This document shows, piece after piece, positions 643 to 32,951 of a stretch of DNA of 34,246 nt; position 1 is the first letter of the stretch; each line of letters begins with the position of its first letter. Source of the stretch: a virus (Duplodnaviria; Heunggongvirae; Uroviricota; Caudoviricetes); IMG/VR virus record IMGVR_UViG_2529292882_000018, positions 1-34,246 of that record. One strand, given 5' to 3'. The translations under genes were made by a program, and so were the position numbers. The notes beneath the pieces are model-generated. The model did not search any database. It saw only the letters and a list, made by a program, of their open reading frames with translations, and had not been told where the DNA came from.

Positions 643-671
643 GGAGTCTCTTAAATGGGACTCCCTTTTTT
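643..671 (+). terminator. intrinsic terminator (possibly bidirectional)
   Basis: GGGAGTC...GACTCCC hairpin followed by TTTTTT; T-run overlaps the stop codon of the converging minus-strand gene. Confidence 0.6.
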
Positions 672-1611
672 ATTGGCAGTAAGAAAAGTTAGTACCGTAC
701 ATTTCATCATGAAGCATTGCAGCATTGCGTTTCTGTTCTTCTTCCTCATCTTCTACATCACTAGAAAAATGAGATTTGCCCTTAAAAGAACGAAGTAATT
801 GCAGTGCAGCCATCGGATCACGCATCACATCGATTTTCACTTCTACTTCATCATTTGCGGCCTCATCAGCCGCGTTTTCAACTACTGCCACCGGAGCAAC
901 TTCTTTAGCTTTCAGTTCTTCAATCTCAGCTTTCTGTGCTTCGATAATCTGGTCTTTTTCTTCCAGTGCAGCTTTCAGTTCTGCGATCTGTGCTTCCAGT
1001 GCAGCAAAGCGATCTTCAACAACCGGAGAAACAGCATTCACCTGTGCTTCCAGTTCCAGAAATGCTTCGCAAGATTCAATACGTTCTTTCTCTTCACCTT
1101 CATAAGCAACCAGTTCTACAACTTCTTTTTCGGTAGCGTGGCTGTTAAAGAATACAGCAAAGTAAGGATTGCCGGATTTAGTGAAGTTCAGTTTAGCTTT
1201 TCCGGTAACTTCTTTACGACGACCGAAGGTGATCTGGCAATCAGAGGTATCCTGAAAATCCATGTTAGGAGCGGAAACGATAGCAGTATCACCAGCAATA
1301 ACCAGGTGGAACAGTTCAGAAGAGTTCTTAACGGTAAAAGTAACGATGTGGTCTACTGCAACGTCTTTAGCAGGTTTAACGCGGTCGATTGCTTTACGAA
1401 TGCCGTTAGGCAGTTTACCGTCAACACCAAAGCCAGCCGCGATCAGTGCTTCACGATGTGCTTTAAAGCCAGCGAAAGCGGATTTCTGCTGTGCAAAGGA
1501 AACATGAGCAACAACTTTCGGCTGAATCTTCTTGTTTGCTTCGGTGCCAAATTTGATAACTGCTTTAGCGTTGGTTACTTCGTTAGTGAAAAAGTTAGCG
1601 GAAAATAACAT
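670..1611 (-). CDS. hypothetical protein with central coiled-coil and acidic C-terminal tail
   Basis: 313-aa ORF, ATG with GGAG RBS; heptad-like EAQ/ELK-rich central segment, DVEDEEEE acidic tail; no family recognised by eye. Confidence 0.55.
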   Translation of the reverse strand: MLFSANFFTNEVTNAKAVIKFGTEANKKIQPKVVAHVSFAQQKSAFAGFKAHREALIAAGFGVDGKLPNGIRKAIDRVKPAKDVAVDHIVTFTVKNSSELFHLVIAGDTAIVSAPNMDFQDTSDCQITFGRRKEVTGKAKLNFTKSGNPYFAVFFNSHATEKEVVELVAYEGEEKERIESCEAFLELEAQVNAVSPVVEDRFAALEAQIAELKAALEEKDQIIEAQKAEIEELKAKEVAPVAVVENAADEAANDEVEVKIDVMRDPMAALQLLRSFKGKSHFSSDVEDEEEEQKRNAAMLHDEMYGTNFSYCQ

Positions 1612-1654
1612 TATAAATACTCCGTGGAAAGTTAGTTTTAATTGTTCATTTCAA

Positions 1655-1692
1655 GCCTCCTTTGCTGCAACAAGGGAGGCTTTTTCTTTTTT
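1655..1692 (+). terminator. intrinsic terminator oriented for + strand
   Basis: GCCTCC...GGAGGC hairpin followed by TTTTTCTTTTTT; sits between two minus-strand genes. Confidence 0.55.
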
Positions 1693-1724
1693 AAAGCCAT
1701 CATATAATTCTCAGTGAAAGGTTA

Positions 1725-1907
1725 TTACCACACCTCTGCGGTAATCTTTACTTTAATGTCATACTTCTTTAAGAGTTTGTGGAAGGTTGATTGATCAATA
1801 CCTTCACCTTTAAACCATTCACCCATCACTACATCAGGTGTCAGTTCAAAATAACGCTTTGCCATTTCTAAAACGATTTCACGAGTGAACTTAACAGGTC
1901 GTGCCAT
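1725..1907 (-). CDS. small putative HTH DNA-binding protein
   Basis: 60-aa ORF with AGGAGG RBS; shares RP..F ... GI..STF..LKKYDIK pattern with the protein at 5281-5514 (paralogs). Confidence 0.5.
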   Translation of the reverse strand: MARPVKFTREIVLEMAKRYFELTPDVVMGEWFKGEGIDQSTFHKLLKKYDIKVKITAEVW

Positions 1908-2426
1908 CTTAAATCCTCCTAAATCTGGATTAATGATTTCTTAAAAAAGAGCGTTAACCGCTCACTATTATTTATATGGGGATTGTATTTTATTTTTCAA
2001 CCCCTCACATTTATCTCTTATATATGTATTTATAACAGAGATATGTTAAAATGTTATTCAGATGTTATCAGACGTGTTAAATGTGTTAAACCGCAGCACG
2101 AATTGCTAAAGAGAAGAACACGAATTAACCAAATTGATGTTTATTCAATCAATTTAGAAAATTGCATAGCACTTTTTGCTAAAGCGGTGAGCATTAATTG
2201 AGCTATGAATTGTAAAGATTTGTTACAAGATTTTCTCTCAGATCCAAATCTTCACAAACATATAACAATTTAACACGATGATAACAATAGGAAGGAAAAT
2301 CGGTAAATTTTCACTTTCAATACAAATATTATACCACATTTTTTCTCGAATTGTCAAGTATAGCACCAAACCTACATAGTGTCAAGAAAGGACTTTCAAA
2401 CCTACACTAGCCCTACACTATGAAAA

Positions 2427-2612
2427 TTGCCCCTGAATTTTGCCCCTGAACCAAAATCCCCTAGATTTCACTATCCCATTTTTGCCCCTGAAACCTACTA
2501 TTTTTGCCCCTGAAATTCTGGGAAACAGTGATTTTGCCCCTCATTTTTGCCCCTGAAATGCCAATAATTGCCCCTGAAAATCTAATTTTTGCCCCTGAAA
2601 TTTGCCCCCGAA
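2427..2612. repeat. array of nine direct 11-bp repeats TTGCCCCTGAA (seven exact, two one-base variants)
   Basis: Copies start at 2427, 2440, 2482, 2504, 2534(variant), 2547, 2568, 2589, 2602(variant); spacing 13-42 bp; inverted variant copy at 2655-2665; same 11-mer forms the left arm of the terminator at 5125. Confidence 0.85.
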
Positions 2613-2813
2613 AAGGATTGGTAAGAAAAACTCTTTATAAAACATTGACTTAGTGAGGGGCAAAAACGGGGAATCGGGCGTGCATAGATATTATATGACA
2701 CATTCGCTACGCTCATGTGTAAAACCAAAAACAACAAATAACCAAAAAGATATTAGGAGGGCGTAGCCCGACTGCGCGAAGCGCTAACCAATTACTTCTA
2801 GTAACACTAATTT

Positions 2814-3036
2814 AAACTAGATGATACTAGATGGTCTTAGAAGGAATTAACTAGTTTGCTCGCTCGCTTCGCTCACTCTCAAACGTCTGCGACGCCACTG
2901 CGTGGCATCGAGAATCACTTCTGAAAGGATTTTCTTGAAAGGGATTTTAAACTAGTTACTAACTGATTCTAGAAAGATAGTAATAATCACTTTGAAGATA
3001 ATAGTAGTTAACTGGTTACTAGATGATTCTAGATCA
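2814..3036. repeat. three copies of a ~20-27 bp CTAG-rich element (core ACTAG-TGAT-CTAGA)
   Basis: Copies at about 2814-2844, 2949-2976 and 3009-3036; eight CTAG tetranucleotides within roughly 250 bp of non-coding DNA. Confidence 0.55.
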
Positions 3037-3293
3037 CTTTAATGATCATGAAAGGTATTGGTATCCCTTCGGGATTGCAACCTTCGGTTGCTAAATTGCT
3101 TCCTAATTATTATTTCTCCAAAAGAAAGATTCTTATATTCTAAAGATACTTCTTCGTTTTGATGATGATTTAATCAAAATCTATGAAGGAGGCGAAGCCG
3201 ACTGAATACCAATTCCTTTCAAATTAGACAAAAATTTCTCGTTATAAATAATAGTGAACTTACTTTGATTCACTTTTTTAGAGGATTTCCACT

Positions 3294-3746
3294 ATGATCA
3301 ATACTAAAACTCCTTTCATTCTTCTGGGTCTGAACCATGATGATAATCTGGCTATGATGCATGTTTTCGCTAATCGTGGTTATAACATCATTCGTCATTC
3401 CGAAGACTCCAATTTCTCAACTGCTTTCTATGCTCTTAAACGTAATGGTCGCCCTACGGTGATCGTAGACTGCTTTACTGATGAAGGTCGTGAACAATAC
3501 AACAACATTCCGGCAATTATTGTTCGTGATGACCTGCCGTTTGATGTTCGTGAATATGACGTTGATTTAGGCTCTTACTATGGGATCGCCGATCTTGACC
3601 AGATTATGGCTGATTACGGTAAACAACCCGCTCAGGAAGCCCCAGAACACGATGAACAAGACGAAGATGACGACGACTACACACCAATCTGTTTCTCTTC
3701 TCACGGTGGCTTCTACGGTTACGATGAAGGCTTAGATATGCTGTAA
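3294..3746 (+). CDS. acidic hypothetical protein
   Basis: 150-aa ORF; strongly acidic with C-terminal EHDEQDEDDDDY run; leader shares a 22-bp element with the gene at 30200. Confidence 0.6.
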   Translation: MINTKTPFILLGLNHDDNLAMMHVFANRGYNIIRHSEDSNFSTAFYALKRNGRPTVIVDCFTDEGREQYNNIPAIIVRDDLPFDVREYDVDLGSYYGIADLDQIMADYGKQPAQEAPEHDEQDEDDDDYTPICFSSHGGFYGYDEGLDML

Positions 3747-3781
3747 TTTAGGTCAACCCTTTGGCGTCTTGTCAAGGGGTA

Positions 3782-3810
3782 TTGACAAAAATTTCTGACT
3801 TTTTTATGAT
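3782..3810 (+). promoter_or_regulatory. sigma70-like promoter with overlapping inverted repeat
   Basis: TTGACA (3782-3787), 17-bp spacer, TATGAT (3805-3810); inverted repeat TTGTCAA-6bp-TTGACAA at 3769-3788; further TTGACA/TTGACC boxes downstream. Confidence 0.45.
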
Positions 3811-3866
3811 TATCGCACTTGACAACTTTGAACCTATTTGACCTAGATTTGTAAAGAGGATGTAAC

Positions 3867-4199
3867 ATGAAAGAATTTACCATCACTAAATCCCTGTATG
3901 ACTGGACTGTTAAAATCTCCGGCAAAACCGTTTCTGTAACCCCTAGCCATGTAGAAAATGATTGGGGCGTATCCCGTGAAACTATCTCCCGTAGTATGCA
4001 TGTTCCGTTTGATCTGATGACCTTAACTGGTATTCATGCAATGCTGGAAGTTCGCGAACAATTCGAAGCTGGTAATCACAATGCGACTCCAGTTAGCAAT
4101 CACCTTCTTACTAATGAAGAACGTGAAATCATCGAAAACTGGCGTTATGAATATGCGATTCCTTATTATGAAGAAGATCAGGTAGAAATCGATTGGTAA
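3867..4199 (+). CDS. hypothetical protein
   Basis: 110-aa ORF with AAGAGGA RBS, downstream of the predicted promoter. Confidence 0.6.
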   Translation: MKEFTITKSLYDWTVKISGKTVSVTPSHVENDWGVSRETISRSMHVPFDLMTLTGIHAMLEVREQFEAGNHNATPVSNHLLTNEEREIIENWRYEYAIPYYEEDQVEIDW

Positions 4200-5116: not shown

Positions 5117-5124
5117 TAATTTTT

Positions 5125-5149
5125 GCCCCTGAATTTCAGGGGCTTTTTT
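5125..5149 (+). terminator. intrinsic terminator
   Basis: GCCCCTGAA / TTCAGGGGC inverted repeat followed by TTTTTT directly after the Rha-like gene. Confidence 0.8.
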
Positions 5150-5241
5150 GTATCTGTAGATGCGCTCAGAGTTGAGTACATCCCCTCAATTTTGAGGGCA
5201 TCTATAGATCTCACCAAAACTGGCGAGATTGTTTTACATAC

Positions 5242-5265
5242 AAAAAAGCCACTCCGAAGAGTGGC
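5242..5265 (-). terminator. intrinsic terminator for the minus-strand cassette
   Basis: GCCACTC-CGAA-GAGTGGC hairpin preceded on + strand by AAAAAA (U-run on minus transcript). Confidence 0.65.
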
Positions 5266-5280
5266 AAAGAGAATCAAAAC

Positions 5281-5514
5281 TCAAAAACCTGTTGCTTCTA
5301 CGATCTGACCATCACCGATCTGAACATAGAATTTAATGTCTAACTTCTTCATATTCTTATAGAATTGGGCGATTGAGATCCCATGTTCACTAAGAATCTG
5401 TTCTTTCGCTTCCTTACCACGATCCGCTGTATAGTAAGCGTAGGCAATATCAGCCATCTGTTCAGCGTTAAAACGGGCAGGACGACCGCGAGTAGCTTTA
5501 GTAGTCATAGTCAT
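5281..5514 (-). CDS. small putative HTH DNA-binding protein (paralog of 1725-1907)
   Basis: Track ORF 5281-5541 begins at GTG; an ATG at 5514 with GGAGA RBS gives MTMTTKATRGRPARF...; C-terminal FYKNMKKLDIKF motif shared with the 60-aa protein. Confidence 0.5.
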   Translation of the reverse strand: MTMTTKATRGRPARFNAEQMADIAYAYYTADRGKEAKEQILSEHGISIAQFYKNMKKLDIKFYVQIGDGQIVEATGF

Positions 5515-5543: not shown

Positions 5544-6146
5544 TTATTTAGAGGACTTACATTTTATCGGAAAAAGTTCTCCATCGTCAATACTCATAAA
5601 GAACTCTGCCTTAATCCCGTACTTCTTCAACCGTGAATAGTATGTACCCCGACTTATATCAACCTTGCGAAGCACTTCAAAGAACCCTTTAGGATCGTTG
5701 TAATAGTGGCTATAACGCACGTTAGCGAGTTCAACGAATAGTTCCCTTGTATCACCATAGCCTTTCTTGAAAGCCTCGTTACGATAGCGTGTAATTGCGT
5801 GATTCAATCTCTTCTGTTTCAACACTTCTCGGATCGGCTTCCACTGCAACCGATAGATAGGACCGTCATCCACTCGATAATAACGCTTGATATCAAAATC
5901 AAACCAATCTCGGACTCTCCGAAACTCTGTATGTGATGTTCTATGCTTCTTAAAGAAGTTGTGAACGTCTGTATAACCATTATCGCGGTAAAACTCTATT
6001 AAAATCTCTTTCGCTTCCTCACGACTAAAGCCAGATGTTGTGTAGTCGGTTTTTAAATGCTTATGCTTAACTGGTAAACGATATTCATGATCGGTACAAG
6101 ACAAGGCTAATTCTAATTCATCTCTTTGTTGCTGATTAATTAGCAT
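5544..6146 (-). CDS. hypothetical basic protein with C-terminal HTH-like motif
   Basis: 200-aa ORF with AAGGGGGG RBS; C-terminal [16 protein letters not shown] resembles the HTH of the two small paralogs; arginine/lysine rich. Confidence 0.5.
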
Positions 6147-6234: not shown

Positions 6235-8139
6235 ATGAAACTGATTTCTAATAAGGCCAAATTAAAAAAGATTCTCAGAAATGCAGCCAAATATATTACG
6301 CCACCGCCTAAACTCCTTCCTTCGGAATGGTGCGAAGCGAATATGGTGCTGGTAGATGGTCCTCAAGCTGGGGATAAAGTTAAATTGCTGTCATTTCAGA
6401 AAGGCATGATTGATGCTCCTTTCCTTGAGAACAAGAAAAAGTATGTTCTGATGACCAGTGCGCAGATCGGAAAGACTACCATCTTGAACGGCATCCTGTT
6501 TAACCAGATGGCTAACGATCCATGCAATATGATTATCGGACAATCAACCGCTAAAGAAATGTCTCAATATCTCGCTGGTAAGATCCGACCGTCTATCGAA
6601 GCATGTGATGCATTAAAAGACGTGGTTACAGACAAGAATGATCGCAATGCGGTTAACAACAATAACCAGCTACAGCTAAAAACGAATCACTTCCTTTACA
6701 TGGTATCGCTTACCAGTCCATCAACCCTACGCGGTAAGACCGCAAAGGTTGGATTACTTGACGAAATCGATGCTGCTACAGCCTCAGAAGAAGGTGATCC
6801 GGTGGCACTGGCTGCTAACCGTTTAACTACCTTTGGCGATGAAGGTCGATTAGTCGTATCCAGTACCCCGACCAGTAAGCTGGGAAGCATTAACCAGCAA
6901 TGGTTATCAAGTGATATGCGTATGTTTTTTGTTCCGTGTCCTCATTGCGGGGAACACCAGGTGATCGAGTGGGAAAACGTTCAATTTGAATGGCGTAACA
7001 TCGATGGTAAGAACTTACCCGATCCTGATACCGCTCGTTATATTTGCCCCCACTGTAAGAACGCATGGACCGAAGGGGAACGAATCAGGGCAGTAGCGCA
7101 AGGCGAGTGGAGAGCAACCCGTGAAAGTGAAGTAGCAGGATTCTGGATTAGCCGTCTGTATTCACCTTTCAGTAGTATCCGCGCTTGTGTGGTTGATTTT
7201 AGTCATGCGTGGCAATCCTTTGATTTACAATCATTTTATAACACCGTGTTAGGTAAGGTATACGACGATCAGGACACGGCAGTAGAAGCAAATGAACTGG
7301 AACAACTCAAAACAGATGTTTCTATCGAGAATATCCCTGATGACGTGATTTTCTTATGTGCGGGTACTGACCAGCAATTAGATCGCGCAGAAACTACCAT
7401 CTTAGGTGTAGCGAAAGATAAGGTTTACATTCTGGATCACCGCAGCTTTTACGATCATAACTGTGAACGATATGAATCCCCTGTATGGGATAGATTAATC
7501 AACTTCCATAAAACCAAATTTACTACTGTATCGGGTGATCGTGTTCCTATGCTCGCCAGCTTCCTTGATACATCGAACGGTCGATTCACTCAAGCTGGAT
7601 ACCGTATTTGCGGCAAGTGGAAGAACTTACACGCTATCAAAGGTAGTTCTGCTGGTAACGCTCCGATCATTCCGGTTAAACCTACCCGCACAGGTGGTCA
7701 TGAATTGCTTATGTTGGGTGTTAACGTGGGTAAAACTGCATTTCGTGAAATGTTGGCTAGGAACCTGAAAGATAATCCTCATATTGCCTTAGAAATATCA
7801 GACACCGTTCCTGATGATTATCTCGATCAGCTTTTAAGTGAATCTGTTAAGCGTACTACTACTGGCGTGAGATGGGTAAAAAATCCAGGCGTTAGGAACG
7901 AGGCGCTCGACTGTGCCGTGTATGCTACAGCGGCTTCTCGCTACGTCCTTTCAAAAATGTCATGGGATAAACTCATCGCAATGAAAGACAGCTTAAACCG
8001 TGTTGTCGAAGAACCCGTAAAAGCTCCTAAATCGCAATCTAACGAGCAAACCGAAGAAACTAAGCCAATCACACGACCACAACGTAAAAACATCGCCAGA
8101 CGTCCAAATAGAGGCCGTAGTTGGGTAACATCGTTCTAA
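6235..8139 (+). CDS. terL: terminase large subunit, lambda GpA type
   Basis: 634-aa ORF; Walker A-like SAQIGKT; blocks [35 protein letters not shown] and [13 protein letters not shown] match lambda gpA blocks as I recall them. Confidence 0.9.
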
Positions 8140-31271: not shown

Positions 31272-32951
31272 TTAAATTCCAAATTCCTGTAATGGACCTG
31301 GTATTTCCTCTTCTGGTTTCCAGTTCTTATCTGTCAGCATGTCTAAACATGGATGCAAAACAAGCCCGTTACTTTCCAGAATCTGTCTATCATTGATAGT
31401 TTTCAAATCAATGAATATCCGGCCTTTCCTCGTTCCTCTTGAATTTTCTATTACAACTCTCTGGGTCTTTCCATCGATGTATTCCAGTACAAACAAGTTT
31501 TTGTTTCTGTCAATCCTGCTACACCCGATCCGCTTTAGAGCTTGCTTAATCTTAAACCGGACCTTTAGTCGTTCCTCGTTATAAACATCTTCTAAATCAA
31601 ATTCTGCGAGCTTCTCCCAGCCTTGAGAGTCCACAGAATACATTTCCTCTTCTGCCATCTTGATCTGATTGTAGAGTGTTTCACGCTCGCTATTGAGGGT
31701 AGTAATCTGATCGGCTAGCTCCTTCGTTGCTCCTGTCATAGCAGAAAGGGCAATCAGGTTATCAATCTTGCGTGATATCTCATCAACCTGTACTTTCAAA
31801 GCCGGAACCGGATTAGCCTTATCCTCAGCAATCCAGATTTTATCAGCCAGCAATTGCAATACAGCTTTCTCTAATTGATCCCCTCGAAAACTCCAGTTTG
31901 GATGCTCGCAATCAAGTCTACGTGAACGGGTCGCATCACATGTATAACGATACTGGTCAGAACGTTTGTTTGTTCCCTTCACTTTAACCATAGCGCAACC
32001 GCAATGATCACATTTCAATAGGCCAATGCCACTAAGCAGGGGGATCGGTTTAGCTTCTTCCTTGTCTCCAAAGTTCCATGCTCTAGCACCAATATTTTTC
32101 TTAAGGTGATAGAACGTAGCATCATCAATAACACGAGGGTAATAATCCTTTAACTCATAGTTAACGCCATCTACAGAGACTTCCTTGATACCAATCAAAG
32201 CGCGGGTATGGAACAACCTTTCAACCATTGCCCGTGACCATTTTGAATGCTTCTTATTACTAACCGCTGGTGGCGGTGTATATGTCTCGTTAAGGTGATC
32301 CAGTATTTCGGCGGTTGAACGTCCATTCTTCCGTAATTCCACAATCTCCTGAACAACAGGGAAGTACACCGGATGAGGCAGCACATAACCGGAAGTGGTA
32401 TCAGTCCACCACATATTCTTTCCAACTTCCTCGATAGCCACTGCCGGATTTTGTGGATTTTCTTGATGAGCTTTAATCTTAATCAATGCGCTTGAGTTAG
32501 TACGATTGCGCTTAGTCTGGCTTTCCTCATTACCACGGATGAATAAAAGGATGGAGAACATCAGGTCCATCGGGTTAGCGGTAACAGTATCCAGCGAGTA
32601 GATCTTGTTATCCATGCCAGTAACAATGGTTATTCCCCTACGGATGATTGAAAGGAATAACTCCTGCGCACTGACAATATCGGCACGGGATAAACGGTCC
32701 AAGTTTTCGATGAATAGCCAGCTACCAACAGGAACGGATCTACCTATTGCATCAAGGAAACGAGATAGCGCCCCTGTTTTGGAGTTAGCACCTTTAAACG
32801 CAGATACACCCAGATCCTGATAATCATTTACCAGTTCAAGGTCATACTTTGCCGCAATCTCTCTCGCCATCCTGATTTGTCGTTCATAACTCGAACCATC
32901 ATTCTGACGCATAGACGAGAAGCGAATATACGAATATAGTTTAGTTTTCAT
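31272..32951 (-). CDS. large serine recombinase
   Basis: 559 aa; N-terminal YIRFSSMRQ serine-recombinase catalytic motif and ENLDRLSR block; CDHCGC...C...C zinc-ribbon; C-terminal coiled-coil. Confidence 0.85.
   Translation of the reverse strand: MKTKLYSYIRFSSMRQNDGSSYERQIRMAREIAAKYDLELVNDYQDLGVSAFKGANSKTGALSRFLDAIGRSVPVGSWLFIENLDRLSRADIVSAQELFLSIIRRGITIVTGMDNKIYSLDTVTANPMDLMFSILLFIRGNEESQTKRNRTNSSALIKIKAHQENPQNPAVAIEEVGKNMWWTDTTSGYVLPHPVYFPVVQEIVELRKNGRSTAEILDHLNETYTPPPAVSNKKHSKWSRAMVERLFHTRALIGIKEVSVDGVNYELKDYYPRVIDDATFYHLKKNIGARAWNFGDKEEAKPIPLLSGIGLLKCDHCGCAMVKVKGTNKRSDQYRYTCDATRSRRLDCEHPNWSFRGDQLEKAVLQLLADKIWIAEDKANPVPALKVQVDEISRKIDNLIALSAMTGATKELADQITTLNSERETLYNQIKMAEEEMYSVDSQGWEKLAEFDLEDVYNEERLKVRFKIKQALKRIGCSRIDRNKNLFVLEYIDGKTQRVVIENSRGTRKGRIFIDLKTINDRQILESNGLVLHPCLDMLTDKNWKPEEEIPGPLQEFGI

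Follow-up and report, generated by a model that had tools for sequence, protein, structure and literature searches.

CTAG-rich repeated elements in a strongly conserved putative control region of an Escherichia coli siphovirus prophage

The closest described counterparts of the DNA considered here are the operator arrays of temperate phages (lambda OR/OL; P22 immI), the iteron origins (lambda ori with O, plasmid oriV with Rep) and the lambda packaging site cosB. In P22 immI, Arc/Mnt operators with TAGA boxes control the antirepressor gene, and in lambda the O protein and its ori repeats vary together. The element in question is a cluster of CTAG-rich repeats at positions 2790-3040 of the IMG/VR virus record IMGVR_UViG_2529292882_000018, whose whole stretch of 34,246 nucleotides (nt), the window, was analysed and found to belong to a temperate siphovirus prophage of ~38 kb inserted in E. 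coli ycdX. The repeats lie in a gene-free gap of 1386 bp (1908-3293) between two divergent small operons, the left one on the minus strand with genes for proteins of 60 amino acids (aa; 1725-1907) and 313 aa (670-1611), and the right one on the plus strand with a 150-aa gene (3294-3746) followed by a 110-aa gene and that of a Rha-family regulator. On sequence evidence, the excess of CTAG stems from repeated motifs, most likely recognition sites, within this strongly conserved putative control region, and we give about an even chance to the reading that the CTAG elements form an array of double-stranded DNA sites for phage-encoded proteins, regulating the flanking early operons.

A preliminary description of this DNA had reported eight CTAG tetranucleotides in about 250 bp, and counting bore this out, with CTAG at 2798, 2817, 2827, 2851, 2952, 2969, 3019 and 3029 (n=8 in 235 bp). 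Outside the gap CTAG occurred at 1.19 per kb, which gives 0.30 expected per 251 bp compared to the 8 seen (Poisson P ~1e-9), and the densest other 251-bp stretch in the window held at most 3. Dinucleotide-preserving shuffles of 2790-3040 (n=5000) contained a mean of 1.9 CTAG and reached 8 or more in 0.04% of cases. An equally high CTAG frequency elsewhere, which that description had named as grounds for giving it up, was not seen; the window as a whole contained 49 CTAG compared to 86 expected and 87 in dinucleotide-preserving shuffles and was thus depleted, the observed/expected ratio of ~0.57 for the rest of the window favouring the description. Within 2700-3293, CTAGA and ACTAG were each present 8 times (0.3-0.4 expected each), and matches to TGATTCTAGA and ACTAGATGAT with 0-1 mismatch clustered in the gap.

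The eight tetranucleotides fall into three units:

2795-2857: CTAG unit 1, with CTAG at 2798, 2817, 2827 and 2851 and CTTAG at 2836.
2943-2980: CTAG unit 2 (GATTTTAAACTAGTTACTAACTGATTCTAGAAAGATAG), which is the core unit and carries CTAG at 2952 and 2969.
3004-3040: CTAG unit 3 (AACTGGTTACTAGATGATTCTAGATCACTTT), with CTAG at 3019 and 3029; 88% identical to unit 2.

The three copies of a ~20-27-bp element that had been described were roughly right, the units found being ~25-40 bp with the first of them diverged. The stretches AACTAGTTACTAACTGATTCTAGA (2950-2973) and AACTGGTTACTAGATGATTCTAGA (3010-3033), 24 nt each, share 88% identity, and the first cluster (2798-2854) is a diverged version of the unit seen at these two places. 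Unit 1 is built of tandem 10-bp repeats (ACTAATTTAA / ACTAGATGAT / ACTAGATGGT / CTTAGAAGGA), and in the first cluster (C/T)TA(G/A) steps, as read from the sequence, fall at 2798, 2807, 2817, 2827 and 2837, a period of 9-10 bp. A 17-nt repeat family, ACTAGATGATnCTAGAT, was found with five members.

Conservation was followed in sixty-odd related loci from E. coli genomes, IMG/VR, metagenomes, Salmonella and Proteus. The layout of operons and gap was common to all fetched relatives, with the gap ranging from 1.25 to 1.48 kb, and in the 19 distinct sequences that share the window's type hardly any variation was seen at 2840-2960 and 3060-3180. Unit 2 was nearly invariant in 18 of the 20 aligned relatives, and its CTAG pair (2952/2969) was retained in 22 of 24 distinct relatives, always at the same 17-bp spacing, so that the second outcome that would have spoken against the elements, their absence from relatives, was not observed either. 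The core of unit 2 reads AACTAGTTACTAACTGATTCTAG in nearly all relatives, with variants ACTAGATGATAACTGATTCTAG and one in which CCAG replaces CTAG; in a Salmonella relative the motif is TCTTAGATGATTCTTAGAAGGATT, so that CTTAG can replace CTAG. Distant relatives with a large terminase only 45-54% identical carry a related element, TTGATTGTTTC(T/C)AGAAACCTTGTAGAACC, also given as TTGATTGTTTC(T/C)AGAAACCTTGTAGAACCATTATAAC. While the core unit stays nearly invariant in the E. coli relatives, the adjoining 150-aa protein drops to 60% identity in the wider relative set. Unit 3 comes and goes as an indel of ~21-24 bp, roughly half of the relatives having it, and unit 1 was confined to relatives that combine TTGCCCC iterons with a 313-aa protein of the window type (in L002 and L008 it is shorter by one 10-bp repeat).

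Changes of copy number by unit-length indels are what would be expected if the elements had little function, being products of slippage or duplication in non-coding DNA free of the TAG stop constraint and carried with functional neighbours. Type-B relatives do without four of the eight CTAGs, and other CTAG-bearing repeats, the ATCCCTAG iterons, are found in the relatives' gap, both of which fit such an origin. We nonetheless see little chance of it, as no variation is seen in the core unit or its flanks where the adjoining coding genes diverge strongly, a related element has been kept at a terminase identity of 45-54%, and the enrichment goes beyond local composition.

Interleaved with the CTAG units is a second repeated motif of the gap, TAGAAAG(G/T)nATT, that is, GAAAGGnATT / AATCACTTTC. 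Its copies in the gap are:

2837-2848, plus strand: half-site TTAGAAGGAATT.
2922-2946, plus strand: two tandem half-sites, TGAAAGGATT and TGAAAGGGATT, invariant in relatives.
3049-3061, plus strand: half-site TGAAAGGTATTGG (GAAAGGTATTGG at this place), the left arm of a long-range inverted repeat.
3209-3221, minus strand: opposite half-site (CCAATTCCTTTCA on the plus strand), beginning 34 nt before the TATAAATA promoter-like box.
2913-2920, with more copies at 2985-2993 and 3032-3040: reverse-oriented half-site variant AATCACTT (AATCACTTT).

The pattern GAA[AG]G[GT]?NATT was found at 2-4 per kb in the gap compared to 0.14-0.58 per kb elsewhere, a 5-15-fold enrichment, in the window and six relatives including those from Salmonella and Proteus. 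Six copies of the reverse form AAT(N0-2)CCTTTC are present in the 38-kb prophage, four of them at 2922-3221, one in the spacer that separates the 60-aa gene from the 313-aa gene, and one upstream of the small-terminase gene, where the half-site and box arrangement of 3209-3250 recurs. L026 and L104 contain the form AAAGTGATT, of which the variant AATCACTTT is the reverse complement, and L021 has four copies of AATCACTT. At the place of window positions 3032-3061, a CTAG-centred palindrome was found in 12 of the 20 aligned relatives (10 reading AATCACTTTCTAGAAAGGTATT; L006 a variant), and a two-base change in L026 makes a perfect 22-bp palindrome there. The window's half-site at 3049-3061 is the right half of the palindrome AATCACTTTCTAGAAAGGTATT of most relatives. 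CTAG palindromes were also found further out, in Proteus (CCTTTCTAGAAAGG) and in Salmonella (AATCCTTCTAGAAGGGATT).

Following the iterons at its left, the gap contains in order an A-rich tract, mini-hairpins, unit 1, a hairpin domain (2858-2910), the tandem motifs, and units 2 and 3; downstream of the hairpins at 3063-3091 come a conserved AT-rich stretch, a further hairpin at 3191-3199 and the inverted motif at 3209-3221. Among the hairpins are:

2759-2784: two GC mini-hairpins, GGGC-GTA-GCCC and GCGC-GAA-GCGC.
2890-2910: hairpin CGACGCCAC-TGC-GTGGCATCG.
3063-3091: two adjacent hairpins, ATCCC-TTC-GGGAT and GCAACC-TTC-GGTTGC (z -3.4 on the plus strand, -4.5 on the minus strand).

The stems at 2759-2784 are retained in relatives while their loops vary (GTA/TTT/TTTA; GGCC-GTA-GGCC in Salmonella L105), other hairpins stand at the place of 2890-2910 (ACGCC-TAC-GGCGT; CCGCG-CGAG-CGCGG), and both stem sides of the 3063-3091 hairpins change together in L004 and L021. 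These small GC hairpins explain why 2740-3293, on either strand, gives a better fold than its shuffles (z -4.3, -5.3). Such folding, and the maintenance of stems through two-sided changes, could point to a long structured leader or non-coding RNA in which the self-complementary CTAG motifs (ACUAGU, UCUAGA) pair RNA to RNA, as in P4 or P1 immunity; a 7-bp helix of ~2837-2843 with 2918-2924 that still pairs across type A and type B, and a conserved -10-like box near 2685-2694, are in keeping with it. We hold an RNA of this kind to be improbable. The CTAG stretches themselves were found to be unfolded, folding no better than shuffles (z -0.4, -0.2), and a conserved one-strand structure with covariation was not found for them. 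The consensus RNA fold of 20 relatives had a covariation term of only -0.81 kcal/mol, and scanning 1500-4000 against Rfam (E up to 5) gave chance-level matches but no family. A proposed pairing of 2848-2857 with 2949-2958 loses its partner in type B though the core stays, and no rightward promoter was predicted in the window. In the 24 GC hairpins of the eight family members chosen as representatives, pairing is Watson-Crick nearly throughout (1 G-T, 2 A-C) with almost no G-U pairs, and a count of wobble pairs to choose the strand was for this reason uninformative. By a reading of the hairpin list, 14 of the 17 three-base loops are G-N-A on one or the other strand, so that stable loops occur on both strands and no single transcribed strand is indicated. 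Taken together, this favours double-stranded DNA, not RNA, as the form in which the CTAG units would act.

The same hairpins allow a more speculative proposal, to which we give only a very slim chance, that 2700-3250 including the CTAG units works via mini-hairpins extruded as single-stranded DNA, with C-GNA-G three-base loops on both strands, between bendable CTAG-phased spacers. If true, 2700-3250 would be a control element through which a temperate siphovirus senses supercoiling or replication, reminiscent of phage N4 hairpin promoters or of the priming signals known from single-stranded phages, here in the setting of a lambda-like prophage without recognisable replication or repressor genes.

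From the repeats, their enrichment and conservation, the palindromes of relatives and the absent fold of the CTAG stretches, we infer that the array is bound by protein. The three units of ~25-40 bp, with the half-sites TAGAAAG(G/T)nATT between them, would form a sequence-specific docking array on double-stranded DNA, placed in the putative 1.4-kb control region that separates the leftward operon (60-aa/313-aa) from the rightward one (150-aa/110-aa/Rha), and the docking proteins would most likely be encoded by the prophage. CTAG would be enriched because (C)TAG(A) lies within the recognised core and because head-to-head half-sites put TAG at the centre of the dyad, and the TA steps, which bend easily, would by their 10-bp phasing allow an oligomeric protein to touch one helix face or wrap the DNA. 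The role of the array may be control of the flanking early promoters, chiefly that of the 150-aa/Rha operon. The promoter-like sites and one candidate binder are:

2328-2385, minus strand (leftward): two near-consensus sigma-70 promoter-like sites, with 12/12 and 11/12 matches and TG before the second hexamer.
3243-3250, plus strand: TATAAATA promoter-like box without a -35 hexamer, ~45 nt before the 150-aa start codon; invariant in relatives.
5544-6146, minus strand: 200-aa protein, which models as two helix-turn-helix-like modules.

The 200-aa protein is a candidate binder of the GAAAGGnATT half-sites; its weak fold matches were to Myb, CENP-B, sigma region 4 and a phage immunity repressor. 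A module RPxKF...GIS..TFYK.LKKYGIK, read from the sequences, is common to the 60-aa (1725-1907), 75-aa (5281-5508) and 200-aa proteins and present twice in the last, and the candidates for binding the array are the 200-aa protein, its 60-aa and 75-aa paralogues and Rha.

Several observations weigh against a docking array of this kind. The fold matches of the 200-aa protein are below significance, and variants of the core unit track no neighbouring protein allele. The core also survives in distant relatives that have neither the 200-aa nor the 150-aa protein, so that its binder, if any, must be another protein. Only one of the 16 flanks of the window's eight CTAGs fits the half-site well (9 of 11 positions), which suggests that the CTAG units and the GAAAGG motif may be two separate interleaved site families; the idea that every CTAG in the window is centred between two GAAAGG half-sites was rejected on this count. 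The units are mostly direct and asymmetric repeats, not dyads, and their number ranges from 1 to 3 among relatives. Unit 1 is free of CTAG in type-B relatives, every relative with CCTACAC iterons having a replacement sequence without CTAG. No promoter-like site was found within 2400-3200, the nearest being those at 2328-2385 (minus strand) and 3225-3252 (plus strand), 210-450 bp off the elements.

The preliminary description had taken the elements for a binding-site array such as an operator. A selected array is still the best reading, given the unfolded CTAG stretches, the interleaved enriched half-site and the CTAG-centred palindromes of relatives. In the strict sense of operator the term is not established: repeated sites are present and relatives have the dyad that such sites usually show, but the window's units are mostly asymmetric and direct, in one to three copies, four of the eight CTAGs are missing with another iteron type, and no promoter-like site overlaps or abuts the units, though one half-site (3209-3221) lies 34 nt upstream of the TATAAATA box.

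This box was found 7 times in the window (2.6 expected), six of the copies (1969, 2027, 3243, 4211, 30160 and 33297) being upstream of genes and in the same direction. Three share an 18-nt consensus, TATAAATA(A/G)TAGTGA(A/G)C, and none has a -35 hexamer. The boxes look like a family-specific promoter class, probably activator-dependent. An assignment to T4-type late promoters was discarded, as distant relatives have TAATAAATA instead; leftward promoters using TAGAAT, and by-eye resemblances to a Fur box (2977-2995), a TrpR operator and an ARG box (3203-3216), were dropped because relatives do not keep them. Small open reading frames (ORFs) across the hairpins were also dropped, since 1-nt indels in relatives break their frame. 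The 150-aa protein downstream of the box (3294-3746) shows by eye a CheY-like strand-helix alternation, then a very acidic linker and an invariant C-terminal FYGYDEGLDML, and gave no family match.

In the left part of the gap are the iterons, which with the 313-aa protein raise the question of a replication origin:

2423-2666: iteron array, nine TTTTGCCCCTGAA copies at 2427-2613 and one inverted copy at 2654-2666, with ~21-bp spacing.
670-1611, minus strand: 313-aa protein with variable N-terminal domain, coiled coil and acidic tail.

The family has at least five iteron types, TTGCCCC (TTGCCCCTGAA), CCTACAC, TCCCCG, ATCCCTAG and TTGTCCGTGAA, and with each of them the 313-aa-type protein has another N-terminal domain (loci L005, L021, L104, L105 and L106), whereas the C-terminal coiled coil and acidic tail are common to all. 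The 60-aa gene that lies between the 313-aa gene and the iterons assorts independently, which argues that the coupling of iteron and 313-aa protein is functional and not mere linkage. The joint switching of iteron and N-terminal domain makes the 313-aa protein the likely, and here presumed, iteron binder, and the pairs offer a clean natural specificity-swap series.

The CTAG elements could then be part of a replication origin, with the 313-aa protein as initiator on the iterons, the AT-rich, 10-bp-phased CTAG units being melted or wrapped, and the mini-hairpins stabilising or marking the unwound strands. The co-variation of repeat and protein that an iteron origin would show was indeed found for 2427-2613, unit 1 (though not units 2 and 3) follows the switch of iteron type, and no other replication genes are recognisable in the prophage. 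The almost purely Watson-Crick hairpins with mostly G-N-A loops would suit single-stranded DNA over one transcribed strand. Among the 100-bp stretches of the window, 2943-3042 ranks third from the bottom in stability, but others are equally or more unstable. A scan with the consensus revealed no good DnaA box in the gap, and the core unit is universal, being independent of iteron type. No initiator family was matched by the 313-aa protein: sequence searches of Pfam, PHROGs, NCBIfam and PDB gave no family, a large word-index search gave only E. coli proteins 99% identical to it, and an exhaustive HMMER search gave 12 matches, two of them unhelpful repeat-rich giant proteins, while its AlphaFold model (pLDDT 52) was unusable. 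We consider an origin unlikely on balance, and continue to prefer a regulatory docking array for the CTAG units.

Part of the iteron sequence was also seen elsewhere, in that the intrinsic terminator of the Rha gene (5118-5150; TTTTTGCCCCTGAATTTCAGGGGCTTTTTT) matches the nine-fold iteron over 14 nt of its 5' half; the terminator is present also in relatives with other iteron types. Between it and the convergent 75-aa gene, at 5150-5260, are small palindromic modules such as ATCCAGATTTGGAT, CCCCTCAATTTTGAGGG and GCGCAGTTTTGCGC, variable in number, with 2 in the window and ~9 in L004 (6270-6530).

The large terminase of the prophage (6235-8139) is of lambda gpA type. At the left end of the prophage, a little outside the window start, is the gene of a 184-aa protein that can be aligned to the N-terminal, DNA-binding part of lambda Nu1 (pairwise E 4e-5), with a weak, sub-cut-off match to Pfam Nu1 (E 0.016). 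As lambda R sites, GAAAGGAAACG, resemble the GAAAGGnATT half-site, the gap might be a cosB-like packaging site, at which the Nu1-like small terminase would bind GAAAGG-type sites and bendable CTAG units would provide the DNA bend; in distant relatives the big gene-free gap lies shortly upstream of the large-terminase gene, with an HNH endonuclease gene between them in one. In lambda, cosB stands immediately upstream of the small-terminase gene and has an IHF site, and neither holds for the gap, in which a scan found no IHF consensus. The small-terminase gene is ~3.5 kb to its left (region 8860-9693 of L001), some 6 kb from the large-terminase gene with regulatory genes on both strands between, and has upstream of it a GC-rich segment, a GC hairpin, two R-like motifs in the classical lambda layout and a TCGTTATAAA box, at the same spacing as upstream of the 150-aa gene. 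That upstream region is probably the true cos region. In addition, a 58%-identical terminase allele occurs with unchanged gap sequence. Contig ends, tried as a proxy for cohesive ends, were uninformative on the ends of the phage DNA. A packaging role for the gap thus appears a poor prospect. The 58%-identical large-terminase allele is found in L077-L079 and L089, in phages otherwise more than 90% identical, with the flanking 200-aa, 165-aa and portal genes unchanged.

The remaining gene content of the prophage includes a large serine recombinase as integrase (31272-32951, minus strand), a lambda-family portal and a fused protease-capsid gene. No repressor or replication genes were recognisable, and the early proteins, the Rha-family regulator aside, gave no match to a known family. 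The region 2300-3400 was found in 57 of 5426 complete E. coli genomes, chromosomal every time, and gave no match by megablast against phage records or by distant blastn against plasmids. The family is also present in Salmonella and Proteus, and a relative from Proteus columbae (L104 15087-15524) likewise adjoins a gene of ycdX-like, PHP-domain type, so that different genera appear to share a conserved target for integration. A large-terminase scan of one genome per species gave nothing, and four extra matches of the pattern TGAAGG..GACTGAA..TATAAATAA in viral contigs were discarded as chance, all within coding DNA. The nearest sequenced phage is distant, the best terminase match being 45% identical, in the record DCP80 (L041 / L068; GenBank PQ671644.1, 'Escherichia phage DCP80'). 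That record is a chimeric assembly with rIIA duplicated, in which ~22 kb of siphovirus structural genes related to the prophage family are fused to T4-like DNA. Distant relatives at a terminase identity of 45-54% have the same grammar in the gap, with their own iterons beside a small leftward gene and GC mini-hairpins alternating with AT-rich stretches.

The family is thus carried by ~1% of complete E. coli genomes and is uncharacterised, and as the 1.4-kb gap is its most conserved early-region DNA, this is the obvious place to look for phage control. The repeat map, with its core unit, half-site, iteron/protein pairs and promoter-like boxes, gives concrete targets for footprinting and deletion; it overturns nothing known on phage regulation and adds a new example of familiar phage cis-regulatory DNA.

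Compared to lambda cosB, with its Nu1 R sites and IHF bend, the prophage has in common a gpA-type terminase, a Nu1-like small subunit and an R-site-like GAAAGG motif, but its gap is not beside the small-terminase gene and lacks an IHF consensus. The likeness to iteron origins such as lambda ori/O and plasmid oriV/Rep lies in iterons spaced by ~21 bp, in a specificity that switches with the N-terminal domain of the neighbouring protein, and in an AT-rich repeated segment and palindromes that adjoin the iterons; it ends at the CTAG units, which are not iterons, at the lack of DnaA boxes and at a 313-aa protein without detectable initiator kinship. The operator arrays of temperate phages, lambda OR/OL and P22 immI, differ in that the sites of the prophage overlap no recognisable promoter, extend over ~450 bp with direct and inverted copies mixed with GC hairpins, and are accompanied by no detected homologue of CI, Cro, Arc or Mnt. 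With these arrays the prophage shares clustered short sites in a gene-free region between divergent operons, a Rha/Ant-like regulator gene downstream, small helix-turn-helix-like proteins on both sides and, in its relatives, dyads centred on TAG/TAGA.

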